DNA from: Candidatus Saccharimonadota bacterium
Lineage (GTDB): Bacteria > Patescibacteriota > Gracilibacteria > Absconditabacterales > Absconditicoccaceae
Direction: 5' to 3'
NCBI GenBank assembly: GCA_000503875.1
Contig: CP006913.1
Coordinates: 870,001-902,000, forward strand
Length of the DNA stretch: 32,000 bases
In this document: positions 6,725 through 23,895 of the stretch, in pieces
How positions within the stretch are numbered: position 1 is the first letter of the stretch
Layout of the letters: every line of letters starts with the position of its first letter
Notes under the pieces: generated by a model
The model's input: only the letters and a program-made list of their open reading frames with translations
Database searches by the model: none
Told to the model about the DNA's origin: nothing
Translations under genes and position numbers: made by a program

Positions 6725-8356
6725 CTATCCTTGAACAATCGGCATCAATCTTCCAATTCCGATACTTCTTTCTTTGAGCTTAATAATTGGCGGGGTCTGT
6801 TTTTTCTTAAACTCGTTTCTCTTGATCATACGTTGATATTTTTGAGCATCTTCCAGACTGATAGGATACTTACTACTCACCGCCTCTGGCGTAGCGCCGA
6901 ACCCCATTTCCTCGACGGCTTCTGAAACTGACTCATAGTCAAAAGGATCCACCTGACCATCCTGTAACTCCGCAGAAGCCTTTCTGGTAATAATTCCTTG
7001 CGGAATAACTTCTTTATGAGATTTTCCATTAATATACTTCGCCATGGCATAGACTTCTTTTTTATTAAGATCTCCTATAAGTCAGAGACCACCAATCAAA
7101 TCTCCATATAATGTTCCATATCCAAGATCTAATTCTGTTTTATTTGAATTATTAATTACGAGTCCTCCTACATCATTAGCAATATTCATCAAGATCAATC
7201 CTCTTATTCTTGCTTGTGCATTTTCATAGGCAATACCTTGAGGTTCCTTGTGTAAATGTTCACGAGAAAAAGAAGAAAAACCTTGTACCAATTCGTCGAT
7301 AGGACCAATCTGAAGTTGGATACCAAGATTGTCCGCCAATTGTTGAGATAATTGAAATGATAAGTCAGAATTATGTTTTGTTGGCATATAAATTGCATGA
7401 ATATGATCAGGTTCAAGCACTTGAGACATCACATACAAACTCAATGCTGAATCTATTCCACCAGAGACTCCAATCACGAGCTCCTTAATTCACGTTTTTG
7501 CTAGATAATCACGAAGTCCAAGTTTCATAGCTTCAAGCAAAGATCCATATTTTTCTTGATGTTCGAAATGAACATATCAGCTTTTATCATAGGTTTCAGC
7601 CTCCAAATCAACGATAGCAACTTCTTCCTCAAAGCTCTTTGCCAAATAATTAAGATTACATTCTTTATCAACCACCATACTCGCTCCATCAAAAACCAAT
7701 TCATCTTGAGCACCAACTTGATTGACATAGACGACAGGAACTTGAAGATTTCTTGCGTGTTTTTTCAAAAGACCCAGTCTTTTTTGTTGTTTCCCCTGGG
7801 CAAAAGGAGATGCTGACAAATTGATCAAAAGATCAAGATCTTTATTAGCATATTGTTGAGCGGGTTTTGTCTCATACAAGTCATCCCAGATGTCTTCACA
7901 AATAGTTACTCCGACCTTTTGCCCACCCGCTGTAAAAACCAATGGACCCTTACCAGCCTCGAAATATCTATTTTCAAAAAACACATCATAATTTGGTAAA
8001 AGTTGTTTGTGATACATTTGGATATCTTGACCGATAACGGCTGCTGCATTATGTTTTTTCATATATCCAGAAGGCATTTTCTCTGCATCATTATAATCTA
8101 CACAACCAAGCACAACTTTTAAATCTTTTGAAGTTGATCTAACAATATCTCTAATTTCATAGATCATTTCTTTTTGCTGACGAAGCTGTGTTTCGTTATC
8201 AAGCAAATCATTAGGTGGATATCCTAATGTTGTCATCTCAGGAAAAATAATCAGACTAACTTCTTTCCCAATGCGTTGGATAACATCAATGATTTTTTGT
8301 TTGTTGTAAGCCAAATCGCCTACTCTGGTATTTATTTGTGCTATTCCTATTTTCAT
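6725..8356 (-). CDS. nadE: Glutamine-dependent NAD+ synthetase (CN-hydrolase domain plus NAD synthase domain)
   Basis: ATG at complement 8354-8356, TAG at complement 6725-6727, 543 codons. Three same-frame ORF-track fragments are joined by 3 TGA. N-terminal nitrilase-like domain (FPEM, CEDIW). C-terminal ATP-pyrophosphatase motif GVSGGIDS. Confidence 0.95.
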
Positions 8357-8373: not shown

Positions 8374-8412
8374 AAATAAATAATTGTATTTGTTACAATA
8401 ACTAGAAGTTAA
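8374..8412 (-). promoter_or_regulatory. nadE promoter with embedded ATTGTA-N5-TACAAT palindrome (candidate NrtR operator)
   Basis: On the minus strand: -35 TTAACT, 18-nt spacer, -10 TACAAT. The perfect palindrome lies at 8383-8399. 34 of 35 nt are identical to 12838-12872 upstream of pncA. Confidence 0.6.
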
Positions 8413-8587: not shown

Positions 8588-9448
8588 TTATTTCGGAATA
8601 ATTAAAAGCTTATCCTGCGGCAAAATCCATTCCGTATTGTTGGCATAAACTTTTTTGAAAGTTTCTACCTCATTATACATATGAAATAGATCCTTACTTT
8701 TGGCATAAGCTTTATTTAGCATAGCAAGACGCGTACTATCAGCACTACCCTTTATAGCTTCTGCATTTTTTCTTGCTGTTGCAACAATATCGTCAGCACG
8801 AAAATTTGCATGAGAAACAATAGAGTCTTTTAATTTCTGCCCTTCAGCAAGATAACCATCTGTTATTTTTTGACGATCAGCAATCATATCACTAAATACC
8901 GCTTTTTTATTTTCATCAGGTAATTCAACACGATTAAATGACAAAAATTTTATTGAGATATCAATATCATCCAAACCATGATTTGATGATGATTTAATAG
9001 TATCAAGCAAACCCTGACGATTATTTGTTACAATATCCTCAAAAATATTTTCACCAAGAATTGCAGCTATATCCGAACTGATATGGTCATCAATTCTATG
9101 ATTTGCTTTATTCATATCAACAACCTTCGTAAAGAAGGTTTTGGGGTTATCTATCTTGAATAAACAAAAATAATCAACAAGAAGTTTCTTTTTTGTCTTC
9201 TCTTGAAGTGTCATTTCTCTTGCATTATAAAGAAGAAGGCGCTTGTCTACTTTAATCACACGCTCCCAAGGATATTTTGTTTTTAATCCAGATTCGGTAT
9301 AATCTCTTTTTGGCTTACCAAATAAGAATGCCGAAGCTTGTTCCCCTTCTTTGATTATAAATAAAGAAGAATTAGCAAGAATAAAAATAAATATTGCTAT
9401 AATAAACAATATTATATTGGGCTTTGAATTCTGAAATATTGTTTTCAT
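8588..9448 (-). CDS. hflC: SPFH/band-7 protein HflC
   Basis: Intact 286-codon ORF with an N-terminal TM segment followed by an SPFH domain. It is adjacent to hflK with a 1-nt spacer. No TGA codons. Confidence 0.75.
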   Translation of the reverse strand: MKTIFQNSKPNIILFIIAIFIFILANSSLFIIKEGEQASAFLFGKPKRDYTESGLKTKYPWERVIKVDKRLLLYNAREMTLQEKTKKKLLVDYFCLFKIDNPKTFFTKVVDMNKANHRIDDHISSDIAAILGENIFEDIVTNNRQGLLDTIKSSSNHGLDDIDISIKFLSFNRVELPDENKKAVFSDMIADRQKITDGYLAEGQKLKDSIVSHANFRADDIVATARKNAEAIKGSADSTRLAMLNKAYAKSKDLFHMYNEVETFKKVYANNTEWILPQDKLLIIPK

Positions 9449-9449
9449 A

Positions 9450-10448
9450 TTATTGAAAGTTTTTTAGATTTAACAATGATTTATCATTAACAACTGTTTT
9501 TTTTGCAGAAGGCATAACCTCTTGCATTGCCTCAAACCATAATTTTTGTTTGGTAGTAATAGGGTCTTTTTTATATTCCATATAAACACCCATAAAACGA
9601 GAAACCTCACCTTCGGCAGCATTTACCTGTTGTGTAAAATAAGATCTCGCTTCATTAATTATAGTTTGAGCAGTTCCTTCAGCTTTTGGAATCACACTAT
9701 TAACATGACCTATAGCTTCATTATACATTTTTTCTTTTTGTTTGATTGCATCCATAACCGCATCATAAGCTGTTTGAACGGCTTTATCGGGCAATGTACA
9801 ATCTTGTAATTTCACTTCATTAATAGTAACCTTGATTCCAATAAAATCACAGTACTCTTGTAAAAGTTTCTTATTCCTTTCCTGAATTTCATTTTTCTCG
9901 GTTGTGAGAATTGCATCAATAGGTGTTTTACCAACAATCAATCTCATCGAACCTTGAGAAAGATTATCAAGAACAGCTTGAGGATTTTTCACTTGATAAA
10001 GCCAATTATAAGTATCCTGTATTGTATATTGAATAATCCAATACACAGAAGCCAAATGACCCCCTTTTGTAAGCATAACAGCCTCTTCGGGAACCTCAAC
10101 ATATTCAACAGGATTCGAATTTTCAACAGTTCTAAAACCAAGTTCCCAACGATAACGAACTTCCGTTCCAACTTTTCTAACTTTCGAAATAATTGGCATT
10201 TTGAAGTATAAACCACCAGGACCAACCTCATGAGAAAACTTTCCAAAATATTCTACAGAGCCTTTTTCGGTTTTATCAAGAACAAACCAAGAACCGAAAA
10301 TCAAATTAAAACCGATAATAAAGACAAAAACAATCAATAACCAATTAAAAGGCAAAAATGTAAATTTATTAAGTCTCACCCCTTTATCTCCATCGCGATC
10401 TTCAATAAAATCAAGATCGAAACCGAGGAATTTCAAAAATCTTTTCAT
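9450..10448 (-). CDS. hflK: SPFH/band-7 protein HflK
   Basis: Intact 332-codon ORF with a TM segment followed by an SPFH domain (VLDKTEKGSVEYFGKF..., coiled C-terminal part). No TGA codons. Confidence 0.75.
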   Translation of the reverse strand: MKRFLKFLGFDLDFIEDRDGDKGVRLNKFTFLPFNWLLIVFVFIIGFNLIFGSWFVLDKTEKGSVEYFGKFSHEVGPGGLYFKMPIISKVRKVGTEVRYRWELGFRTVENSNPVEYVEVPEEAVMLTKGGHLASVYWIIQYTIQDTYNWLYQVKNPQAVLDNLSQGSMRLIVGKTPIDAILTTEKNEIQERNKKLLQEYCDFIGIKVTINEVKLQDCTLPDKAVQTAYDAVMDAIKQKEKMYNEAIGHVNSVIPKAEGTAQTIINEARSYFTQQVNAAEGEVSRFMGVYMEYKKDPITTKQKLWFEAMQEVMPSAKKTVVNDKSLLNLKNFQ

Positions 10449-10600: not shown

Positions 10601-12076
10601 CTACATATCATTTATAAATCTTTCTCTCACTTTTTGATGAATTTCTTTGGTTACTTCGCTTTCTCTGCTTGGAAGATATACCGCGTCAAATGTTTCTATA
10701 AGTCTTTTTCTTGCAATATCTACAGCGGCTATATCATTATCATCATAAACAAGATTTCCATTTTCATAGACTGGCTTCAAAAGTCTTTCCCCTTGAATTT
10801 CTTCAAATTCTTGAACAACAACTCTCTCATCATTTCTTATCTCTATATTTAAGTCTCCTGGAATAGGCTCCTTATCGATATCGTTTGAAAGCTTACCAGT
10901 TGGATCGTCTTCTACCTGAGTAAGTTTATAGGCAGCGCTAAGAGCATCTCTTGTTTTGTTTCTCGCTACCAAGAGACCGCCCAATCCATATTGGATAAAA
11001 TCTTTTGGATCAAAACCAGCATTTGCGACTGCTTCTTCTACTCTTCTGACATCTTCAACAGTAGAAATATCAGCAACCACAATCTTATCTAATTTTGGAT
11101 CTAGCATATCATGTTCTTTCAATTTCTTGAGTGCATAAACTGCTTGGTCTGCTAAATCTCAACTATCCAATCTCATACCGACAACCTTACCTGTTGCTCT
11201 ATATTTCTTTTTTAAAGCCACAATCTTATCTATCCCTTTATACGAATCGATTAAATCTACAAGAAGAGCTATTTTATCGCTGGATTCAATTGCATTAACA
11301 AAAGCTTCATCCTCTGTTGGATAACAAGAGAAATATCTATGCGCAGTTGTTCCTCCGCTAAGGGTTTGCGGATATACCAAGGCAGCCGTATCATTGGAAG
11401 TAAGTTTTAATCCTCCTCCAACAATATTTGCTTCTACGGCATCCAAATGAAAATCTTCATTTGGAGTAGCTCTTTTACCAAATTCAGCAACCCTTCCTTG
11501 TCCTATAATTTGTTCTAAATAGTAGGCATCAGTGGCAACGATACTTTTGAAAAAAGCTCTTAAAAAAACAGGTTCATAGATAGCAGCAAGTTCTGCAGGA
11601 CCAGAAACCACCATTACGGGTTCCTTTGGTTTAAGCACCGTTCCATCTTCTACCGCACGAATCTTCAAAGGAATATGTCATCCATGAGTATCTATTACCT
11701 CTTGCCACATAGTCGCATCAAAAAATCCATTTCCTCCTTTTGTTTTTTGTGCCTCGTAAAAATCCTTTGCAAAATCAAGTTCTGCCTGAGTAATTTGGAT
11801 ACCAAGAATGCTTTTTAAAGTACTTCTAATCCCATCCACAACGACATATTCTTTATTAGGAGACCTCCTAAAAGACATTGTAAACGTTTCCTGCTCATGA
11901 GATTTTTCTCCTTTAAGATGGTTCATGGTTCTGTTGTATGCATCCGTTTGAATGATTTTATTTTTCTTGGCAATATCTTTTCTCACGTCAAGATCAGTGA
12001 TTTGTTCATATTCTTGATAAGAAATTTCAGGGAATCTGGTCCTCTGCTCCTTGTATGATGAAAAATTGAAGGTCAT
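10601..12076 (-). CDS. pncB: Nicotinate phosphoribosyltransferase (NAPRTase family, ~490 aa form)
   Basis: ATG at complement 12074-12076, TAG at complement 10601-10603, 491 codons. Three same-frame fragments are joined by 2 TGA. Motifs QTDAYNRTMN, EFGKRAT, LTSNDTAA, GTTAH and MRLDS(TGA)DL. Confidence 0.85.
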
Positions 12077-12088
12077 GGGTAGTGTTTG

Positions 12089-12820
12089 TTATGCGAATAA
12101 AATATTTTCTAATTCTTTTAACGTAACATATCTGATGTTATTTTGGGCAAAGTTTTCTATCATTACTTGTGTAGATTCTGATGCAACACCTCTTACTGCA
12201 TCGTCAACAACAATCACTTCATATCATTTATCAACTGCGTCCAATGCTGTTTTTCCCACACAATAATCCGTAGCAACTCATCATAAAACAACTTTTTGAA
12301 TCTGATTTTCTGTAAGCTTTTTATCCAAATCGGTTTCATCAAATCCACTATACGCTTCTTTAGCTGGGTTCGTTCCTTTAATCACGGTAATAGCAAAGTC
12401 ATCTTTTTTTAGCGGTTCCATCAATTCTGCACTATCTGTTCGATCTTTTGAATGTTGTGGCCAAAGCATTTGACTACCAACTGTTTTAAGAAATGATTGT
12501 AGTTCTTTGACAGTAAATTCGGCTCCGAGAGCTAATCCATGATTTTCTTCTGTCCAATCTTTTACCTCTTTATACGCAATCATATCAAATGGTTTCTTAT
12601 CTAAATAATTATCTGCAAAGGAAATATGTCCTCTCGGATGTTGTTCAAATACATTCACTATCAACGCTCCATATGGTTGCAAAAGATCAATAAGCTTTTT
12701 CGTTGCCTGGGCTGCTTGTTCTCCTTCTTGGACATAGAGTTCTTTATACGAAGCATCTTCAAAGGTTTTTGTGTTATCAACACTGATAACGGCTACATGA
12801 TTAAGATTTATAGTTTTCAT
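12089..12820 (-). CDS. pncA: Nicotinamidase
   Basis: ATG at complement 12818-12820. The ORF-track fragment extends through 3 TGA to TAA at complement 12089-12091, giving 243 codons. Motifs ISVDNTKTF, LWPQHS and VVL(TGA)(TGA)VATDYCV (catalytic Cys). The stop lies 12 nt before the pncB start. Confidence 0.9.
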
Positions 12821-12837: not shown

Positions 12838-12876
12838 AAATAAATAATTGTATTTCTTACAATAACTAGAAGGCAA
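12838..12876 (-). promoter_or_regulatory. pncA-pncB promoter with embedded ATTGTA-N5-TACAAT palindrome (candidate NrtR operator)
   Basis: On the minus strand: -35 TTGCCT, 18-nt spacer, -10 TACAAT. The perfect palindrome lies at 12847-12863. It is near-identical to the nadE promoter and sits at the same distance (27 nt) from the ATG. Confidence 0.6.
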
Positions 12877-12882
12877 AAAAAA

Positions 12883-13281
12883 TTAATCAGGAATAGAAAA
12901 CTTTATAGTAGTAGTTCCCTCATAATTATCACCATAACTTGGAAAATCAGAACTAACTTTAATATTTGTATATCCCAAGGCCTTTAATAATCAGCTAATA
13001 TCTTTATCCTTATCGGTACAAATATCTGATTTCAAAACGATTGAGATATCCTTTTCATAAGCAGCTACTGTTTCACGAATTTTTGCATCAAGAGCATCTC
13101 TTGTTTTTTCACCAACCTTGTGTTTTAACGCTTCCAATCTTTCACTAGCTGACATATTTTTCAGCATCTCCGATGATTCTTTTGCTGTTAACATAGAGAG
13201 AAGAGTAATGAATAAAAGAATTTTATTATCTTTTTGTTTACCCTGGTATTTGTATATTATACAATTTCTATCAAATTGCAA
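12883..13281 (-). CDS. Hypothetical small protein (start uncertain: TTG 13281 or ATG 13194)
   Basis: Open frame with 1 TGA, TAA at complement 12883-12885. The central part is helical and charged (ERLEALKHKVGEKTRDALDAKIRETVAAYEKD). No domain was recognised. Confidence 0.4.
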
Positions 13282-13310
13282 GAGAATATTGTATATTTTA
13301 CAATAAGAAA
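13271..13310 (-). promoter_or_regulatory. Conserved intergenic module, copy 2 (TCAAATTGCAAGAGAA plus perfect ATTGTA-N5-TACAAT box)
   Basis: Perfect palindrome at 13288-13304. Alignable with 8497-8534 and 18161-18199. Confidence 0.5.
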
Positions 13311-13381: not shown

Positions 13382-14170
13382 TTATCCACCAAAGCCTCCA
13401 AGATTGGTTTGACTATGGTAAGCAGCGCTTTGACTAGCACGTACAGCACTCTGACTAAATATCTGAAATGCTTTACGTATTTCACTTGGATTAGATTGAG
13501 CTGTTAATATCCAGCGATCTGAGATTCCCATATCACCAAATACTTTTCTAAAATCACAGTTCCCATTATCAAATCCCATAGCGGCGATAATATGATCTTC
13601 ATTCTTCAACATGTCAGTGACGATTTTTTTAACATCATCAGATGTACTTGTACGAGAATGACAATCTTCACCGTCAGTCATAATGAGCGTAATTGTACGT
13701 ACCTGAATCCCATTGTTTTTAAAATCCTGCGTTTTAGCGATAACAGTAGCGAGAAGCTTAGCTGTTTCATCAAATAAAGGAGTACCTCCATTTGGATCAT
13801 AATTAGCAGGATCCATTTTTGGAACAACTGAAAGGGGTGTATAAGGATACAACACTGTTCCATTCAGATACCGGTTTAAAACTTCTATATTATCTTGTTG
13901 TTTGCTATCAGATAATGCTTTGATAAGCATATTGTGTCCATCTCGAATAGGTTGAGCATTGCTAGCAAATCTGATTGATCCAGAATCATCAACCAAAATA
14001 TTCAACAAAATAACTTCACTGGATTTCACATTATCAATTGGGACTCCAAGTCCTTCTTGTATAATAGCTCCAATATCTGGGATTTTTGTAAGAGCTGTTA
14101 ATGAGCCTTGACTCAAATCACCATCTTCGTGGGCGTTTTGCAACAAACCCAAATTAGCTGTATTTGACAT
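13382..14170 (-). CDS. von Willebrand factor A (vWA) protein with MIDAS motif, TerY-like
   Basis: ATG at complement 14168-14170, preceded by GGAGGA with a 7-nt spacer. TAA at 13382-13384, 262 codons. MIDAS elements VDDSGS, GGTPL and MTDGED. Confidence 0.85.
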   Translation of the reverse strand: MSNTANLGLLQNAHEDGDLSQGSLTALTKIPDIGAIIQEGLGVPIDNVKSSEVILLNILVDDSGSIRFASNAQPIRDGHNMLIKALSDSKQQDNIEVLNRYLNGTVLYPYTPLSVVPKMDPANYDPNGGTPLFDETAKLLATVIAKTQDFKNNGIQVRTITLIMTDGEDCHSRTSTSDDVKKIVTDMLKNEDHIIAAMGFDNGNCDFRKVFGDMGISDRWILTAQSNPSEIRKAFQIFSQSAVRASQSAAYHSQTNLGGFGG

Positions 14171-14197: not shown

Positions 14198-15223
14198 TTA
14201 CAATAATTTTGTTGCATCAACATCAGGCCACTGATCAATTGGATCAGTACTTTTTACTACATGCATACCAGCATTGCGAAATCTTTCGAAAGCTTGATTT
14301 GCTTGATCAGTAAAATCGACTATACCAGGAATAACCACTGGCGAAGTACAATCTTCCAAAAGGTAAACTTTTTTTGCCAATGATGGATCTTTGCTCATAA
14401 TATCGGTAAGCAAATCATCAATACTCCAGGCTACACAATGTGATTTTGCTTGTCCAGCAATAATCAACATATCGTAGTTGAGAAGTTTCTCGATAAATCG
14501 AGAATTTCTTTGAGCAATAGCAGTATTATCATAAGTATCCAATACCTCAGGACTCAATACCGAGTAGTTCTCAGTCAATGGATTACCACCCTTAATTTCG
14601 ATACCTGATTCACTGCTGCGAGCAATCGTATGAAAGAAAATAGCTTCTTCAACAAGTGATACCAAAGAATGACCAATTCCACCAAGCATTGCATGGTAGG
14701 GCCATATGGTAAGTTGATATTTACCTTTTTTTTCCAATGATTGGGCATAGTGAATTACGTGCTTTCTCAAAGCTGTGTAACCAACTCCCAAACTAGTAGC
14801 CACACCAGGATTGATAACATATTTTCCCTTGACCAGATCATCAGATGAGATCATGGTCATAGCAGGTACAGGATTTCCATTCTGATCAACAAAGAACAGA
14901 GAATGAAAAATCTGCATTGCCCTATGGGTATCCATGGTAGGAAAAATTTTGGTGATTCTACCGAGATTAGCATAAATAAATTGTACAAGACGTTTTGTGT
15001 CTTCCGGAGCATTCTGAACAAAAAGTTCAAAACCGGGAATGCAAAATGTATTCTGCATATCAATCGGCATCAATGCAATTTTAAATTTATCAGTTGCAGA
15101 ATCAGTAATACTTTGATTTGCCTTATAGAGGATTCCCTCTTCTGCCAAATTTTGGTAAGCGATCCTATAAACCTGATCGGCTTTAGAAACATCGTGATGT
15201 TTCGGAGTTGCAAATTTTTTCAT
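14198..15223 (-). CDS. Large isochorismatase/nicotinamidase-like cysteine hydrolase (341 aa)
   Basis: Intact ORF. Motifs PIDMQNTF (Asp region), TIWPYHAMLGGIGH (resembles the nicotinamidase LWPxHC segment) and IIAGQAKSHCVAWS (catalytic Cys region). It has an N-terminal extension of about 50 aa compared with pncA. Confidence 0.75.
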   Translation of the reverse strand: MKKFATPKHHDVSKADQVYRIAYQNLAEEGILYKANQSITDSATDKFKIALMPIDMQNTFCIPGFELFVQNAPEDTKRLVQFIYANLGRITKIFPTMDTHRAMQIFHSLFFVDQNGNPVPAMTMISSDDLVKGKYVINPGVATSLGVGYTALRKHVIHYAQSLEKKGKYQLTIWPYHAMLGGIGHSLVSLVEEAIFFHTIARSSESGIEIKGGNPLTENYSVLSPEVLDTYDNTAIAQRNSRFIEKLLNYDMLIIAGQAKSHCVAWSIDDLLTDIMSKDPSLAKKVYLLEDCTSPVVIPGIVDFTDQANQAFERFRNAGMHVVKSTDPIDQWPDVDATKLL

Positions 15224-15250: not shown

Positions 15251-17134
15251 TTATTTTATCGCAAGCAAAATAATTTTGTTGCGTTTAACAACATAAATTC
15301 CATGAGTAGAAACTATTAGTTTTGATTGCTCGTTTACATATTGTTCTGTATCAACAAACAATTTACTTTCTAGTTTCCCAGATGAATTAAATGATATTCT
15401 GAGAATACCTTCATCAGTAGGACAAAAAAGATAATTAGCAAAAGCTGATTTACCTTTGATGTGATTTAACCAAGAATAATTATCTATACTATTATCAATA
15501 TGCGCAAGAACATTTCCTTGTCTATCGATAACAATACAATGATTAATATATTGGCTCTGATCCTTGGTAGCAATCATAAGCCAAATTATAGCATCACTAA
15601 TAAAACACTTTGCATCCGTGATTTGTCCTTTGATAAATGGTAATACAACGCGATCATTAATCACCTTGCTTGTCATCTCAAAAACAAATCCCTGCAAAAT
15701 ATTACCAGCCTTATACATACCAAATCCCAAAGTATTACCAACCCATAATAGAGTTTGGTCTGCAACTCCTTGTCCTATTTGACTAGGAGAATATTCCAAA
15801 CCAAGTGGGTTACCTTTGTAAATGGTACCATTTTCTATCCAAAACATATTCTGGTTATTAGCATCAAATATTGATTTATTACCAACACAATCTACAAACG
15901 TTTTATTGATTTTACCATCAGCAAAGTGTGTAAGCATAGTATTTGATTTACCAAAAATTGTAGTAGTATCGTTGATTGCAAAATGCAAACCGCGATCGAG
16001 TTCTCCCTTCATTACAATTTCAGAATTTTCTCTTTTGTATCCATTATCTTGATGATACAAATACATCAGTTTATTATTTTCTAATGTAACAAAAAGTATT
16101 ACTCCATCAGTATGGAATATCTCATGCATTTGAACATTACCACTTACTGCAACAGGTGCAAATATTTTTACACCAACAGTACAAATAGGACAATGTGAAG
16201 TAGCATATTCTAGTCCACAAACAGGACACCTCTGCCAATGCATATCTTCCAAAAGTTTGATCGGGAATTCACCTCTATTATCTTTATCAAAAAGATTTTT
16301 AAAATAATGAATCATATCATCCGTCAAAACATTGTATGGATAAGCATGTTTAGGATAAACAACCTCAGGATTAAAAACATTTATTCGGTGATGAGCACGC
16401 AGTTGTTGCTTAATACGTTTGGTCGAATCCTTGGGCTTATAAATACCTCCATAAGGATCTACGAACAATAACGTTTTAAAAAGTAATGCAGAAAAAGCAT
16501 ACCAGTCACCCAGTGGATTATGATTTTTTGTCATAGTCCAAAACGATTCTTTTCCTTTGGTAATAATATCACAAATCAAAGGATCAACAAATTTTTCTGT
16601 ATACATAGTACTCATAAAAGAGCCAAACTGATAACTATCAGTATCTATCATATACACTTGTTGATTTTTGATTAGCGTATTTAGATCGTTAAAATCACCA
16701 ATCACAATTCCATGATTATGTAGTGATTTGAGAGTTTTATGAAGATTTACAAAGATATCTCTAATTTCATTATTTGAAATGTTCATAGATTCTCTATAGT
16801 GAATATCTCCATACGTCAACAATGTTTCAGCTCCAGTGATAAACGGCATAGTGTAACCAACCACCAATCCTTGCTTGTCAGTTAATAACTCACGAGGACT
16901 AATAATATTACTTTCTAATCCGCGAGGAAACATTGTTAGTTTTTTTTGATGCATCGATATCCTGACATGAGCAGCTTGCTGCTCCTCAGGAGATTGTGTA
17001 TAATAAGGATCATTTGATTGGCGATATATTTTTGCCACATTACCATTACCCATATCATACACAACAGCCTCTTGGCCAGCACCGATTTCTTTGGTTAATC
17101 GTATTGATTGACCATGCAAATAAACTGTTTTCAT
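15251..17134 (-). CDS. Ser/Thr protein kinase-like protein with central Zn-ribbon and a ~300 aa beta-rich C-terminal domain
   Basis: Intact 627-codon ORF. Gly-loop GAGQEAVVYD with VAKIY Lys, catalytic segment HNHGIVIGDFNDLN, and MIDTDS (DFG-like). Zn-ribbon CPVCG-x9-CPIC near 16180-16240. The C-terminal part has repeated beta-strand-like segments. Confidence 0.8.
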   Translation of the reverse strand: MKTVYLHGQSIRLTKEIGAGQEAVVYDMGNGNVAKIYRQSNDPYYTQSPEEQQAAHVRISMHQKKLTMFPRGLESNIISPRELLTDKQGLVVGYTMPFITGAETLLTYGDIHYRESMNISNNEIRDIFVNLHKTLKSLHNHGIVIGDFNDLNTLIKNQQVYMIDTDSYQFGSFMSTMYTEKFVDPLICDIITKGKESFWTMTKNHNPLGDWYAFSALLFKTLLFVDPYGGIYKPKDSTKRIKQQLRAHHRINVFNPEVVYPKHAYPYNVLTDDMIHYFKNLFDKDNRGEFPIKLLEDMHWQRCPVCGLEYATSHCPICTVGVKIFAPVAVSGNVQMHEIFHTDGVILFVTLENNKLMYLYHQDNGYKRENSEIVMKGELDRGLHFAINDTTTIFGKSNTMLTHFADGKINKTFVDCVGNKSIFDANNQNMFWIENGTIYKGNPLGLEYSPSQIGQGVADQTLLWVGNTLGFGMYKAGNILQGFVFEMTSKVINDRVVLPFIKGQITDAKCFISDAIIWLMIATKDQSQYINHCIVIDRQGNVLAHIDNSIDNYSWLNHIKGKSAFANYLFCPTDEGILRISFNSSGKLESKLFVDTEQYVNEQSKLIVSTHGIYVVKRNKIILLAIK

Positions 17135-17991
17135 AATATTTCCTCACTTTTTCTCAAAGAGATTAACGTAGTATCGTCAGACAATAAGCCTGGACATTTG
17201 ACAATGTTTTTTTCTTCCCAAACAGGTTTTCGCTTTTCTGTATTAACCATAGTCAACACATTACGAATCCATTCAGGATTTCTGAAATAAATATCATCAG
17301 TCCAAAACTGATTAATCTGACCTATAAGTTTATCTTGTCCTGGAAATTTCTTTTCAGATAATTCCATCAGATCAACAACGCCATCAGTTCCTATCAATAA
17401 ATTTTGAATAGAATCTGTAGGCCAAATACCATGTCTTTGGATACCAAGGAGTGACGGATCATTTCTCGTAATCTCACTTCCGGTGATTCCATAACATAGA
17501 TAAGGTGGCTTATTACCAGCAAAAGGGCCTATTACATGTTTTTCTCCATTGATGAAATAGATTCCATCTCCACAAGAAAAAACACAAGTAACATTGGGCG
17601 TAATCACAACTCCGACTATGGTAGCTAGAAAATATTTACAGATAGTATCTATAAGATTTTCATCCATATCTTGAGCTATAATACGAATGCGAGCCAAAAC
17701 ATCTTGACGTACATTATGCCATAACCAATCATGTTGAAAAAAGTTTTCATCAGAAAGGATACTATGATGTTTATTGAGATAACGAGCTAATGTATTAGCA
17801 AAAATAGAAGATAATAATTTACTTCCTACTTCACTATATTGCCCGCCACTACAACCATCAGAAACTATAGCAATAATATACTGACGTTCTCTCAGCCACA
17901 AGAAATGATCTTGGTTGTTACGACCTATTTTTGTATGTCGAGTTCCAATCACAGATCCTCCAGCAAGTTCAAAACGATCTAGGTTTTCCAT
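17095..17991 (-). CDS. PP2C-family Ser/Thr phosphatase
   Basis: ATG at complement 17989-17991. Motifs NNQDHF, VSDGCSGG and LIGTDGVVD (metal-binding Asp residues). Under the standard code it ends at TGA 17131-17133, overlapping the kinase ATG as ATGA. With TGA read as Gly it continues for 12 codons to TAA at complement 17095-17097. Confidence 0.8.
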
Positions 17992-18160
17992 ATATGTATT
18001 TTTTAATTGTTTAGCTGTTAATGAACTTCTTCATGTATTAGTAATAACATCATACTAAAGGTTTCTTTTCTGTTTCTTGCAATCCCCTTTCAGTCTGTCG
18101 AAGGAAGATAATTCCAAGAAGAAAGATTACTTTAGTAATTGTACTATATACAAAAAGAAA

Positions 18161-18346: not shown

Positions 18347-19270
18347 ATGGAAATGCAAAGTATTAGTGTCGTCGTACCAGGTGGTTGTCCAAACAGGTGT
18401 AAATGCTGTGTATCAAAATTACATACCGATGGTGAAAACGTATATAGAAATCAAATTGAAAAAAATTATCAATTTGAAGACCTATATCAAAACGATTATT
18501 ATGATGCCATGAGTTTCGCCAGAGATAATGGCTGTAATACTATGATGTACACTGGCGACGGAGAACCTTTAATGAACAAAGGATTCATAAGAAAGGTAGT
18601 TGAAATAAATAAACAATTAAATCAACCTTTCAGATGGAATGAAATCCAGACAACCGGCGTATTCCTGACTAAGAAATCAGAGGAAAATGGAGGTGAGACA
18701 AACTTACGTTGGTTAAGAAATTATGTAAGAATAAAAACCATTTCGTTAAGTTTATTCAACATCTTTGATTCAAACAAAAATGCAGAATATTCTCAACCAC
18801 AATCAAAAGCTGCTTTCGTAGATATTGAAAAAACATGTAAAGCTATTAAAAAATATGACTTTACATTACGATTATCTCTAAATATGGTTGATTTTTACAA
18901 TGATGTAACCCCAGAAGAAATCTTCCAAAGAGCTAGAGAGTTAGGTGCAAATCAGATTACCTTCCGCGTACTTTATAATATTGATAATCCAACAAACAAA
19001 GAAGAACAAGAAATCTCAGATTGGATAAGAGAACATAAAGTAAAAGATGAGAAAATTCAAGAAATCAACGACTATATCAAAAAACACGGTCGTATTCTCG
19101 AACAACTCCCCTTTGGTGCCTATCGTTACAGCTTACATGGAATGTCCGTTGTAGTCGATGACGATTGTATGAGCACAAAAGAAGGAACAAAAGAAGTTAA
19201 ATATTTAGTACTCCGTCCCAATTGTAAAGTATATACCAAATGGGATGACGAAGGCTCTATCATCTTCTAA
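18347..19270 (+). CDS. Radical SAM enzyme (307 aa, no SPASM-type extra Cys cluster seen)
   Basis: Intact ORF. CX3CX2C cluster GGCPNRCKCC near the N-terminus and a GGE-like SAM motif YTGDGEPL. No TGA codons. Confidence 0.85.
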   Translation: MEMQSISVVVPGGCPNRCKCCVSKLHTDGENVYRNQIEKNYQFEDLYQNDYYDAMSFARDNGCNTMMYTGDGEPLMNKGFIRKVVEINKQLNQPFRWNEIQTTGVFLTKKSEENGGETNLRWLRNYVRIKTISLSLFNIFDSNKNAEYSQPQSKAAFVDIEKTCKAIKKYDFTLRLSLNMVDFYNDVTPEEIFQRARELGANQITFRVLYNIDNPTNKEEQEISDWIREHKVKDEKIQEINDYIKKHGRILEQLPFGAYRYSLHGMSVVVDDDCMSTKEGTKEVKYLVLRPNCKVYTKWDDEGSIIF

Positions 19271-19352: not shown

Positions 19353-20306
19353 TTATCAATCCTTATGGTAAATATGCAATTCTATAAAGTCATTAAATTC
19401 ATTTCCTTTCACTATTTCTGTCCTAATAGGGCCTTTAAATCATGGATCTATCAAAGGAGAAATAATATGGTGTCACGAACCATCATATCTTTGGTAAATA
19501 ATAGTTCAAAAATACTCTCCAAAATCCACATAAAATGTTTCTCCGATATTAAAATTATGTTCAGTATGTTGAGGATTAGCAGAATCAAAAGGTTGTAACA
19601 CATCAACTAAATTCTTTTTTGATTGAATCAAAATTCCTTTATGGTTATCAGGAATATAAATATTTCAATTTAGTTTAAGTTTTAATGTTAACGCCTGATC
19701 AATTTCACCTTCTGTAAGCTCTTTAGCTTCTCAAATATTTTCTATCATATCTGGCGTTATGGTTTCCCGTTCTGAAGGAATATTTGATCATACAAGAACC
19801 CAAGTCTTACCATATTCTCATTCGATTTTAATTTTTCATTTTTCTATAATATTGTACAAATCTTTTCCTGTAATACTACTTCCACTAGGTCTAAAATAGA
19901 GTCTTAAAAATGGAGTTTGAGGCTGTATTTCTACAGGAGATAGTCATCTATTAATTACTGAAACAGAAACATCAACAAAGCCTTTTTCACGAAATTCAGC
20001 CAAATCAGCATAAGAAATATAATCAAACATATTTCCCAACATATGTATTCATGACTGAGCAAAACAACTTCTCATAGAAATTTCCAGGTGTTTCATCATT
20101 CAAGTAGAAAGTAATCATACTTCTGGAAATAATTTTTTATCTAATCTAACAACCACAGGAGTAACTTCACCCGCAGCAAGAACGACATTTTCTACAACAG
20201 AAAAATCATCGCTTACTCGAAATTTTTTGATATGAGTATCCAAAATCTGACGACTAAGATATGAATTAGCTCCAAATAGCTGATCTTCATTTGAAAATAT
20301 TTCCAT
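19353..20306 (-). CDS. dCTP deaminase/dUTPase-superfamily (DCD-like) protein
   Basis: I fully translated it: ATG at complement 20304-20306, TAA at complement 19353-19355, 317 codons with 12 in-frame TGA and no TAA/TAG. The C-terminal motif HHIISPLIDP(TGA)FKGPIRTEI resembles the dCTP deaminase signature IDPGFxGxxTLE. Confidence 0.5.
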
Positions 20307-21365: not shown

Positions 21366-23147
21366 ATGAAACAAGCGCTATATGCATGATCCTTTGACCC
21401 TATAACTCACGGACACAAAGATATCACAGAAAGAGCCGCAAAACATTTCGACAAAGTAACTGTTGGTATTGGTGTTAATCCAGATAAAGAAGGAAGATAT
21501 CTTTTTTCCTTACAAGAAAGACTCCATCTTACGCGTGAAGTCCTCAAAGATATTTTAAATGTGGATGTTTTGGCATTTAGAGGCATGCTTTCTGATTTTG
21601 CCTATGAAAACAAATATCCAGTAGTCGTAAGAGGAATCAGAAATGGGAAAGATTTTGAAATGGAACAAGAACTGCAATGGGCTATTGAAAGGCAAAAACT
21701 TGGAATAGAAACATTTTTTCTTAATGCAAAACAATCAGTTTCAGATGTTAGTTCTAGTGCCGTAAAATCAGTACTCAAAGAACAAGGAGATATTAAACCC
21801 TATGCCCCATTAATCATTAAACAAGCAATGGAAGGAAGACTTTTAGGTCAATATATAGCAGGAGTTACTTGAAGTGTAGGATCTGGAAAATCATTCACTA
21901 CAGATACATTTATGAAACTCTGCGAAAAAAATGGAATCACCTGACACAATCTTGATTTAGATAAAATAGGTCACGAAATCCAATGACCACTCCAAGAACC
22001 AATTTATCAAGAAACTAGACAAAGAATAATCCAAACATTTGGAGATGATGTGGCAAATGAAGATGGGACTATAAACAGAGAAAATCTTGGTCCAAAGGTA
22101 TTTTGAGATGCTAAAAAATTAGAAGAACTCAATGCCATCATGCATGATCCTATGAGAGTGAGAACAAGAAGACTAATGTACAACCAAAAAGGATTATTCT
22201 TCTATAACGCAGCACTCATTGCAGAAAATAACGCATCAAATATTGTAAACAATAATATAGTTTTGGTTAATGTAGATCCAGCAATTCAAGCAAAAAGATT
22301 GGAAGAAAGATGAGCATCTCCAGAAGATGTCACAAGAAGACTAAAAAGCCAATTTACCACAGAATATAAAAAAAGTCTATTACTAGAAAGTATAAAAAAA
22401 GATGAGCATGGACTTATTATTGATCTTCAAACACCCTATATCAATCAAAGTGAAAAAATCGCTTTCAACGCATTGTTAGCACAAATAGATACGTTTGGAG
22501 AACTTCGTTTTTCTGGATTACTCAACAGATTATGAGTCAAAGAAAATCATGCCAAACTTTTTGCTGAACTAAGAAATATGTATGATAGGCCCATCTCTCC
22601 CGATGCAAATCGAGATGAAATAACTCAAAAAATAAAAGGAAATTATCACAAACGATTACACATTATAGACTCCTCAAATGAATTTTATAAAATCAGACAT
22701 CTTATCAAAAATCCTGATATTATTGAATGTGCAATATTATTTCACGATATTATTTACGATCCAACATCAAAAACCAACGAGGAAGATAGTGCAAACTTTG
22801 CAGAAAATATATTAATCAAACGATGACTTCCAAAAGATTTTATAGAAGAGGTAAAAAGATATATTCTTCTAACCAAGCACGACAAAATTCCAGATACTGA
22901 AGATGGTAAATATCTAGTGGATATCGATACGTCTATCTTATGAAGAGAACGAAAAAAATATGAACAATATGCCAAAGATATCAGAAGAGAATATTATATG
23001 TATTCAGACAATAAGTATAACGCAGGAAGAAAAAATGTATTAAAGTTTTTCCTAGAAAAAGAAAATATATTCCAAACAGAGCATTTTCAAAACAAGTATA
23101 AAGACCAGGCAAAAACAAATATCGAACAAGAAATTTCTTCATTATAA
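21366..23147 (+). CDS. coaD-coaE: Tri-domain fusion: phosphopantetheine adenylyltransferase (CoaD), dephospho-CoA kinase (CoaE) and a COG4339-like HD phosphohydrolase
   Basis: ATG 21366, TAA 23145-23147, 593 codons, 9 TGA, single frame. CoaD motif YA(TGA)SFDPITHGH. CoaE P-loop IAGVT(TGA)SVGSGKS follows directly after the CoaD C-terminus. The C-terminal domain has YHKRLH...AILFHDIIYDP...NEEDSANFA...LLTKHD...DIDTSIL(TGA)RE. Confidence 0.85.
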
Positions 23148-23158
23148 ACGATGAACTA

Positions 23159-23175
23159 ATTGTATATATAACAAA
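23159..23175 (+). promoter_or_regulatory. Degenerate ATTGTA-N5-AACAAA box upstream of nrtR (possible autoregulation)
   Basis: The left arm is perfect and the right arm matches 4 of 6 positions. It lies 61 nt upstream of the nrtR ATG. Confidence 0.3.
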
Positions 23176-23206: not shown

Positions 23207-23231
23207 AAATCAGATTTTAATTCTGATTTTT
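23207..23231 (+). terminator. Hairpin plus T-run after the coaD-coaE-HD gene, ending 5 nt before the nrtR start
   Basis: Stem aaatcaga / tctgattt with loop ttttaat, followed by a T-run. Confidence 0.5.
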
Positions 23232-23235
23232 GCAA

Positions 23236-23895
23236 ATGAGCAAACAAAACATTCTTATCACGGTAGACAACATTGTCTTCAGTATCGTAGATCAACAACT
23301 CCAAGTTCTTTTGATTAAAAGACTTATAGAACCGTTCAAGGATATGCGAGCCTTGCCAGGATGATTCGTTTTGGAAAACGAAAATTTAGAAAAAGCTGCT
23401 CACAGAGAACTCGAAGAAGAAACTAGCGTAAAAAATATTTATCTAGAACAACTCTATACTTTTTCTGAGGTAAATAGAGACCCAAGAGGAAGAGTTATTT
23501 CTTGTGCATATATGGCACTTGTTGCAAGAGAAAACATCATTATCAATCCAGGATCTGATGCGGCAGAAACACAATTTTTTGCGGTAAATAAATTACCAAA
23601 ATTAGCCTTCGATCACAAAAAAGTAATAGAATATGCCCTTCAAAGATTAAAGTGGAAAATGGAATATACTAATATCGCTCAATATATTTTGCCAAGAAAA
23701 TTTACGCTTTCAGAATTACAAAAAGTGTATGAAACGATACTCAACCAAGCTATCGATGTAAGAAACTTTAGAAAAAAGATTGAAAAACTGTGACTTGTAA
23801 AAGAAACAGGAGAAAAAGAAATCGGCGTACAATACAGACCCGCAAAATTATATGAATTTAGTACAAGAAAATTGGAAATTGTAGACGTATTATAA
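23236..23895 (+). CDS. nrtR: Nudix-related transcriptional regulator of NAD metabolism (NrtR family)
   Basis: ATG 23236, TAA 23893-23895, 219 codons, 2 TGA. The N-terminal Nudix-like domain has M(CGA)ALPG(TGA)FV...AAHRELEEETS. The C-terminal winged-helix-like part has FTLSELQKVYETILNQAIDVRNFRKKI. It lies near NAD genes that carry palindromic boxes. Confidence 0.8.

Follow-up and report, generated by a model that had tools for sequence, protein, structure and literature searches.

Gao et al. reportedly described a TerY-P-like defence module in 2020, and we know of no molecular output that has been assigned to the widespread TerY-P-type triads. A TerY-P triad, as two papers summarise Anantharaman et al. 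2012, consists of a TerY-like vWA protein, a PP2C phosphatase and a Ser/Thr kinase with a C-terminal zinc ribbon (PMC11090510, PMC4978471). The former paper links these triads and TerY-P-like modules to anti-phage defence and, with reference to Anantharaman 2012, gives a metal-sensing role for TerY as a proposal (PMC11090510). Operators of the regulator NrtR have a GT-N7-AC core, and ADP-ribose frees NrtR from DNA (PMC2330246). Jumbo phages carry sets of NAMPT and NMNAT genes for NAD+ supply (PMC7824862). The locus described here lies in a 32,000-nucleotide (nt) stretch of DNA from contig CP006913.1 (positions 870,001 to 902,000), which we call the window. Its central gene, an open reading frame (ORF) at 14198-15223 on the minus strand, encodes a 341-aa nicotinamidase-like protein, labelled ISO, and stands between kinase and vWA genes in a PP2C-kinase-ISO-vWA cassette. 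We consider it probable, at roughly 0.6, that ISO is an ADP-ribose-inducible, NrtR-controlled nicotinamidase that feeds nicotinate to nicotinate phosphoribosyltransferase (NAPRTase) and is modulated by the vWA protein and the kinase/PP2C pair.

ISO and its four-gene cassette

The ISO gene has an ATG start and a TAA stop, and its product is 100% identical to a protein encoded by a candidate-division SR1 genome of 1.18 Mb (locus tag prefix P148_SR1C00001). This DNA reads TGA as Gly (genetic code 25); the ISO ORF contains no in-frame TGA, so its translation is the same under either code. With more than 8000 homologue clusters at 90% identity (2164 at 50% identity) in its family, the ORF cannot be a product of chance; the gene is conserved. 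Identity is about 60% between SR1, cyanobacteria, spirochaetes and others, and close relatives occur in at least 596 species-representative genomes. A sequence-only reading of the same DNA had pointed to the landmarks PIDMQNTF (residues 53-60), WPYHA in place of WPxHC (174-178) and AGQAKSHCV (256-264), as well as to an N-terminal extension, and we recovered all of them. The extra segments of ISO are this extension (residues 1-47), an enlargement of about 50 residues between DxH and WPYH, and a short C-terminal tail.

A search of the PDB with the single ISO sequence gave no match, and nicotinamidases were reached only by the family profile and by fold search. The AlphaFold2 (AF2) model, built from a 45-sequence alignment, had a mean pLDDT of 96.9, and nicotinamidases held all of ranks 1-14 when it was compared with the PDB by Foldseek (target TM 0.74-0.80). 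The top match was A. baumannii PncA (2wta; E 4.7e-12, target TM 0.78), and the other top-ranking nicotinamidases came from yeast (Pnc1), P. horikoshii, Leishmania, Drosophila, M. tuberculosis, S. pneumoniae and B. subtilis, with non-nicotinamidase amidases of the isochorismatase family ranking below them. The family profile likewise had nicotinamidases as its top five PDB sequences (Pnc1 at 1.1e-6), and the best matches of the model in the viral structure library BFVD were giant-virus nicotinamidases.

Alignment of the family profile with M. tuberculosis PncA by hhalign (97.5% probability) paired the catalytic residues of the two proteins: ISO D55 (codon 15059-15061) with the catalytic Asp D8, K211 (14591-14593) with the catalytic Lys K96, and C263 (14435-14437) with the catalytic Cys C138, while H177 of WPYH (14693-14695) fell on the metal ligand H71. 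Two further predicted metal ligands, D98 (14930-14932) and H100 (14924-14926), were assigned by their position in the motif MDTH; all of these codons are on the minus strand. F60 and W174 correspond to the residues that sandwich the pyridine ring in PncA. Among 45 diverse members of the family, with identities down to 30%, at least 90% conservation was found at D55, D98, H100, W174, K211 and C263, and F60, H177 and H262 were invariant. Neither the catalytic Asp nor the catalytic Cys has been lost, and the nicotinamidase-like assignment made in the sequence-only reading held up under structure prediction and fold comparison, with the Asp, Lys, Cys and metal site intact. The nicotinamidase structures solved so far have the metal bound to N1 of the pyridine ring of nicotinamide, which carries no substituent. 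Since the metal ligands are kept, free nicotinamide would be favoured over nicotinamide mononucleotide (NMN) or NAD as substrate. From the model and the alignments, ISO is apparently an active, metal-dependent nicotinamidase-type cysteine hydrolase with its triad, metal site and pyridine pocket preserved.

ISO had also been called a paralogue of the window's own pncA. The kinship in type stands, the closeness does not: in a profile-to-sequence alignment with the 243-aa PncA of the window, ISO scored E 2e-8 at about 23% identity. Origin as a recent duplicate of that pncA was considered and rejected, the two proteins being only distantly related. Judged from these alignments, ISO is a member of a separate and ancient long-form family and not a close paralogue of pncA.

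The PP2C, kinase, ISO and vWA genes lie on one strand with gaps of at most 27 nt, the PP2C gene overlapping the start of the kinase gene and ISO being set off by 27 nt from its neighbour on either side. The vWA gene (13382-14170, minus strand) has a GGAGG ribosome-binding site before its ATG at 14170 and encodes a 262-aa protein with a complete metal-ion-dependent adhesion site (MIDAS; D61-x-S63-x-S65, T130, D166). Its C-terminus forms a helix and tail rich in Ser and Gln, the SQ-rich tail spanning residues 238-256. This protein matched no Pfam model, the VWA models included, and its profile matched no PDB sequence; the assignment came from fold search, in which the AF2 model (pLDDT 88.1) had CMG2, TEM8 and integrin I-domain vWA folds as its best Foldseek matches. 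The MIDAS residues DxSxS, T and D are invariant across homologues, which, as for ISO, share 55-60% identity across phyla; some of them are named 'uncharacterized protein YegL' by JGI.

The kinase (15251-17134, minus strand) is a divergent, probable Ser/Thr-type protein kinase with a glycine loop (G18/G20), the catalytic lysine K35, the loop D147-x4-N152 and the metal-binding Asp D164, and it matched Pfam Pkinase at E 4.4e-6, under the gathering score. Its catalytic motifs and the four Cys of a putative zinc ribbon (C303, C306, C315, C318) are invariant, and its profile found only weak PDB matches (E>0.1), to the kinase loop and the Zn-ribbon. A strongly conserved C-terminal domain of about 300 aa (15251-16150, residues ~330-627) carries invariant W432, G470-F471-G472 and W555, had no sequence match in Pfam or PDB profile searches, and may be a sensor domain. 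The PP2C-type phosphatase (17095-17991, minus strand; 298 aa under code 25) matched PF13672 (PP2C_2) at E 1.9e-17, with 64 bits against 24. Its in-frame TGA is codon 287 (17131-17133), and code 11 would end the protein at 17131. Among the defence models of PADLOC-DB v2, ISO, vWA and PP2C had no match, and the kinase matched only the PD-T4-6 and MkoA kinase models, weakly.

The linkage of these genes was quantified from the vWA side in metagenome contigs, counting only loci with room for the neighbour. The ISO gene lay immediately upstream of the vWA gene in 60 of 60 loci and the kinase was present in 42 of 44; two loci (L128, L132) held an ISO-vWA pair without the kinase. The order of the cassette genes is kept across phyla. 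PP2C-kinase-ISO-vWA is an integral unit, strictly linked, and the earlier placement of ISO inside a kinase/vWA unit was borne out by the 27-nt gaps, by the 60/60 adjacency and by co-occurrence in 17 of 30 viral loci.

Seen from the enzyme, the picture is broader. The locus scan used the closer of two alignments (A2), the broad one (A1) being too diverse, and neighbours were counted in 79 non-redundant genome loci. A vWA protein was near ISO in 23 of these, a kinase in 19, a PP2C in 18, NrtR in 11, an ADP-ribosylglycohydrolase (ARH) in eight and NAPRTase in seven, and the other loci showed lineage-specific synteny only. In a neighbour-joining tree, cassette-linked ISOs were interspersed with stand-alone ones. 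Only G213 and P280 differed between the two sets, essentially a single conserved position, G213.

In seven lineage-diverse loci the NAPRTase gene directly adjoins ISO on the same strand (L009, L016, L029, L054, L061, L069, L082). The four NAPRTase neighbours tested had different best NCBIfam models, which were above cut-off in L054 (NF006415) and L009 (NF003704) and below the curated cut-offs in L082 and L061. A tblastn search with the window's pncA found no PncA-like match in ISO-NAPRTase loci of several lineages. This recurrent pairing is the strongest contextual argument for ISO producing nicotinate, and the family may serve as a salvage enzyme in many cyanobacteria and other phyla.

Several other architectures occur in the family. 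A subset of cassette members are proteins of about 580 aa with a domain of about 235 aa fused N-terminally to ISO (P0044, P0060, P0109, P0122 and others; for example L164 7001-8743 and L166 7001-8731). This domain had no Pfam match, no PDB sequence relative and no free-standing copy among the fetched loci. P0258 (655 aa) joins ISO to what, judged by eye, is a zinc-type alcohol-dehydrogenase-like domain, and P0199 (614 aa) is a tandem duplication of a short-form ISO.

Viral DNA also encodes relatives of ISO, with 26-59% identity: they were found in 27 IMG/VR contigs and in three curated genomes of huge phages, which measure 462-595 kb. In 17 of these 30 viral loci they were accompanied by vWA, PP2C and kinase. 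The viral cassettes follow one of two orders, the cellular one or ISO-vWA-PP2C-(ARH)-kinase. Host or prophage DNA could account for some of the IMG/VR contigs with high identity, so the phage claim rests on divergent copies in large phage genomes. The cassette-bearing IMG/VR contigs measure about 190-545 kb, and ISO identity in the viral cassettes is 30-37%. Loci with ISO, vWA, PP2C and kinase include L167 (LR745208.1, 6004-11190), L168 (LR756511.1, 5992-9996) and L169, and others, often with changed order, are L176-L179, L182, L183, L188 and L193; in L177 and L193 an ARH gene lies inside the module. The huge-phage ISOs of L167 and L168 are without the N-terminal extension and keep WPxHC. The jumbo-phage surveys that we searched contain no mention of an ISO/vWA/PP2C/kinase module.

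A NAD cluster with predicted NrtR control

The cassette belongs to a NAD cluster that comprises a NadM-Nudix gene, a probable NAD kinase gene, nadE, pncB, pncA, the cassette itself and an NrtR gene. The glutamine-dependent NAD synthetase nadE (6725-8356, minus strand) matched Pfam NAD_synthase at E 2.3e-52, together with CN_hydrolase. The NAPRTase gene pncB (10601-12076, minus strand) encodes 491 aa under code 25 and matched NCBIfam NAPRTase models at E 3.6e-45, under their cut-offs. The shorter nicotinamidase gene pncA (12089-12820, minus strand) encodes a protein of 243 aa when read with code 25, in which three Gly residues come from in-frame TGA codons; it matched Pfam Isochorismatase at E 1.8e-23, and its best NCBIfam model was nicotinamidase/pyrazinamidase (E 4.9e-29, under cut-off). 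The NrtR regulator (23230-23895, plus strand) combines a Nudix domain with a winged helix (Pfam NUDIX E 2.6e-16, NrtR_WHD E 7.2e-25).

The pncA-pncB pair that the sequence-only reading had placed beside ISO is present, with the pncA start (12820) 1378 nt away, with the qualification that both genes are intact only under code 25 and interrupted under the standard bacterial code. We rejected the possibility that they are pseudogenes, since their in-frame stops are all TGA and each falls on a conserved Gly (VVLGGVATDYCV, RLDSGDL), consistent with code 25. For the same reason, ORF calls made with table 11 are fragmented across the window, and genes besides pncA and pncB are also split.

The sequence TTGT-N7-ACAA occurs six times in the window against 1.04 expected, a number reached in none of 100 shuffles, and all six occurrences are intergenic. 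The predicted NrtR-type boxes lie upstream of nadE (8384-8398), directly upstream of pncA (12848-12862), between the vWA stop and the unit formed by a small ORF and pncA-pncB (13250-13264 and 13289-13303), 148 nt upstream of the PP2C start (18139-18153; TTGTACTATATACAA), and upstream of nrtR itself (23160-23174). The box before the cassette overlaps a -10-like TATAGT within a promoter-like site at 18170-18143. In the 12 SR1/Peribacteria-type loci, TTGT-N7-ACAA boxes are found within 400 nt upstream of PP2C without exception (12/12), and cyanobacterial-type loci have 21-bp palindromes (ATAGTGTAAAAATAACACTAT) upstream of PP2C, mostly between divergent nrtR and PP2C genes. Together with the NrtR gene, these boxes outline a predicted NrtR regulon that would take in the cassette in the SR1 genome.

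A NAD context was also common elsewhere. Among 44 complete cassettes with upstream sequence, an NrtR gene was in the locus in 20 and directly upstream in 14, and NrtR, NAPRTase, ARH or pncA-pncB was nearby in 33. The recurring neighbours encode NrtR, NAPRTase, PncA, ARH, NADAR, Nudix proteins and NAD kinase. Two loci with N-terminally extended ISOs illustrate this, one reading NADAR-NrtR-PP2C-kinase-ISO-vWA-PncA-x-NAD kinase-Nudix-NAPRTase and the other NrtR-PP2C-kinase-ISO-vWA-PncA-x-Nudix-ARH-x-PRTase.

Other genes of the cluster deserve a brief description. The small conserved ORF between the cassette and pncA (12883-13194, minus strand; about 100 aa, likely start ATG 13194) has counterparts of 64-69% identity in the equivalent place of SR1-type loci and two NrtR-type boxes upstream, and it matched nothing in Pfam or NCBIfam. 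A radical-SAM gene (18347-19270, plus strand) diverges from PP2C, so that the intergenic region with the box at 18139-18153 is common to both, and SR1-type loci keep it in the corresponding place, with 67-74% identity. Between nadE and pncB (8588-10448, minus strand) lie genes for two membrane-anchored proteins that by eye resemble an HflK/HflC (SPFH/band-7) pair. Between the cassette and nrtR are a 317-aa ORF without a Pfam match that adjoins a methyltransferase gene (19353-20306, minus strand) and a large ORF in which inspection by eye alone suggests a fusion of CoaD, dephospho-CoA-kinase and HD-type domains (21366-23147, plus strand).

Proposed mechanism and rival explanations

We infer that ISO most likely deamidates free nicotinamide, a by-product of NAD+ cleavage and ADP-ribosyl transfer, to nicotinate and ammonia, and that the nicotinate would pass to the neighbouring Preiss-Handler genes pncB, the NadM-Nudix gene and nadE. 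ISO would be third in a PP2C-kinase-ISO-vWA operon that is transcribed from a promoter with a predicted NrtR operator, and an operator at this position implies that the cassette would be de-repressed with pncA-pncB, nadE and nrtR when ADP-ribose signals NAD consumption. The MIDAS vWA protein would be an obligate partner that may bind ISO physically, or may sense or deliver its metal. We further infer that the kinase/PP2C pair, through a phosphorylated protein of the unit, sets the state of an ISO-vWA complex, in the manner proposed for TerY-P-type triads. In such a scheme ISO would be the regulated output of the phospho-switch, as had been suggested from the sequence.

Several observations weigh against this interpretation. 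ISO falls under the gathering score of Pfam Isochorismatase PF00857 (16 bits against 27, E 0.014) and far under the cut-off of NCBIfam PRK11609 (NF008623; 18.1 bits against 174), and its homologues are without a precomputed Pfam domain. D98 and H100 are equated with the PncA metal ligands by motif and strand position and by alignment to the window's PncA only, and hhalign to M. tuberculosis PncA misplaces this short segment. A search for phosphosites found no Ser, Thr or Tyr specifically conserved in cassette-linked ISOs, which suggests that the kinase target may not be ISO. The neighbourhood survey supported the earlier expectation of linkage to kinase, PP2C and vWA genes (vWA in 23 of about 79 enzyme-seeded loci) and brought out the connection to NAD through NAPRTase and NrtR, but the majority of the family stands alone, without the triad. 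Finally, a shorter PF00857-type nicotinamidase gene is also near the cassette in the window, in L164 and L166 and in SR1-type loci, and redundancy with a nearby PncA would be odd, so that ISO could have a different substrate or role.

That last point leads to an alternative that we regard as unlikely yet worth weighing, in which ISO keeps the fold and chemistry and acts on another pyridine or pyrazine carboxamide or on a NAD-derived amide, complementing the adjacent PncA without duplicating it. The roughly 130 extra residues of the N-terminal extension and enlarged insert could reshape the pocket, and the ISOs fused to the 235-aa or alcohol-dehydrogenase-like domain would also fit a different substrate. 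Yet the conserved metal ligands, F60 and W174 are the residues that in PncA hold an unsubstituted pyridine, and compounds with a ribosyl group on N1, among them NMN, nicotinamide riboside and NAD, would be unable to coordinate the metal in this manner; moreover, ISO sits directly beside NAPRTase with no PncA-like tblastn match there in several lineages. Another rival concerns the partners of ISO. The vWA protein might be a maturation factor that inserts or senses the ISO metal, with the kinase and PP2C acting on vWA, the activity of ISO following further downstream, and the switch reporting metal status and not NAD status. Strict ISO-vWA pairing, a complete MIDAS, the kinase-free pairs in L128 and L132, the metal-sensing role proposed for TerY (PMC11090510, which cites Anantharaman 2012) and the well-known vWA cochaperones of metalloenzymes are in line with this idea, which we nevertheless consider unlikely. 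Stand-alone ISOs, the majority, need no vWA, and what sets them apart from the linked ones is in essence a single position, G213; a MoxR-type ATPase is absent.

It is also conceivable, if rather improbable, that the cassette is mainly a conflict device, a TerY-P-like system of defence or counter-defence with ISO as an effector on the nicotinamide pool. In cells ISO would then withhold nicotinamide from phage NAD+ rebuilding, and in huge phages it would channel nicotinamide to NAD+ or relieve nicotinamide inhibition after NADase-type immunity. The link of TerY-P triads and TerY-P-like modules to anti-phage defence (PMC11090510), the four-gene module carried by curated genomes of huge phages and by IMG/VR contigs between about 190 and 545 kb, and the recurrence of ARH and NADAR genes as neighbours are all compatible with such a role. 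The sequence-only reading had called ISO conflict-associated, a description that fits the cellular copies poorly: these lie in NrtR-controlled NAD-salvage clusters and not in defence islands, ISO, vWA and PP2C have no PADLOC match, ISO and vWA are 55-60% identical across phyla, which is unusually conserved for conflict proteins, and the cassette is kept in SR1 genomes of about 1.2 Mb. The huge-phage copies keep a conflict role possible, and such a role overlaps the salvage interpretation without excluding it. By comparison, incidental adjacency, with ISO as an ordinary housekeeping nicotinamidase beside an unrelated triad, is strongly disfavoured and very improbable. In its favour, most of the family stands alone, but the vWA-side linkage is 60/60, the cassette order is conserved across phyla, and phages carry the same set of genes in another arrangement, with 30-37% identity.

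We thus retain the NrtR-controlled nicotinamidase as our preferred reading. Beyond it, we put forward a wider and decidedly tentative idea, which we think is less apt to be right as a whole: that PP2C-kinase-nicotinamidase-vWA, often with ARH, is an unrecognised NAD-homeostasis switch of four or five components, induced through NrtR and ADP-ribose and gated post-translationally by phosphorylation, which minimal-genome bacteria of the candidate phyla radiation (CPR) have in common with cyanobacteria and other phyla. Its capture by huge phages would have given them a regulated third route, a nicotinate path for rebuilding NAD+ or control of nicotinamide during NAD-depleting immunity, and among TerY-P-type triads the cassette would be the first whose enzymatic output can be identified.

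The locus matters in several respects. A triad tied both to a single enzyme, whose reaction can be predicted, and to a defined regulon offers an experimental handle on the TerY-P-type switch, and the cassette is a tractable link between a phospho-switch and NAD salvage. For NAD biology, it points to a large, unmodelled family of long nicotinamidases and to a possible control of nicotinamide clearance at the post-translational level. In phage-host conflict, where the depletion and reconstitution of NAD+ have become central themes, a nicotinamidase cassette under regulation in huge phages would be a new route. Among CPR bacteria, it is telling that a 1.2-Mb SR1 genome devotes about 4.6 kb to the control of NAD salvage.

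Comparison with described systems

ISO resembles PncA and Pnc1 (EC 3.5.1.19; PDB 2wta, 3v8e, 3pl1, 1ilw) in its isochorismatase-like alpha/beta fold, Asp-Lys-Cys triad, Asp/His/His metal ligands, Phe/Trp pyridine pocket and genomic pairing with NAPRTase. It differs in being about 130 residues longer (the 47-aa N-terminal extension, the insert between DxH and WPxH, and the C-terminal tail), in having WPYHA in place of WPxHC, in sharing only 14-18% identity with the solved enzymes and in falling under Pfam and NCBIfam cut-offs; a subset is further set apart by its obligate vWA/kinase/PP2C context. No characterised member of the ISO family was found. The full-text literature that we searched held nothing linking a nicotinamidase or isochorismatase to vWA, PP2C, TerY or NrtR, although Anantharaman 2012 and Gerdes 2006 may mention the association or the cyanobacterial enzyme. 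Within the literature searched, the long nicotinamidase family and its cassette are apparently undescribed.

The cassette shares with the TerY-P triad a MIDAS-type vWA protein and a PP2C phosphatase, and its third protein is probably also a kinase of the same type, with a putative four-Cys zinc ribbon behind the kinase domain. Unlike the triad, it has a fourth, enzymatic gene, ISO, always between kinase and vWA, and its kinase continues beyond the ribbon into a domain of about 300 aa, whereas TerY-P kinases end at the ribbon or an OB fold. Its neighbours are NAD-salvage and ADP-ribose genes under NrtR, in contrast to the ter, McrBC/CoCoNuT, DNA-processing or restriction genes of TerY-P systems; its vWA, PP2C and ISO proteins have no PADLOC match, and its vWA protein matches no Pfam VWA model.

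NARP1 and NARP2 are phage pathways of NAD+ reconstitution. Like phage systems of NAD+ supply, the phage ISO cassette, sometimes with ARH, could serve the recovery of NAD+ from nicotinamide; unlike them, it would use a deamidase and a nicotinate route and would bring its own kinase, phosphatase and vWA control. The resemblance to the NrtR regulon (Rodionov et al. 2008, PMC2330246) lies in the presence of an NrtR gene and of 21-bp palindromes with a GT-N7-AC core upstream of pncA, nadE, nrtR and the cassette. The kinase/PP2C/ISO/vWA cassette is absent from the regulon members listed in that study, in which the closest parallels are nrtR-draG-SCO1765 and the unexplained nrtX-nrtY. In kind, the locus is a variation on nicotinamidases, TerY-P-type triads and the NrtR regulon, all of them known.

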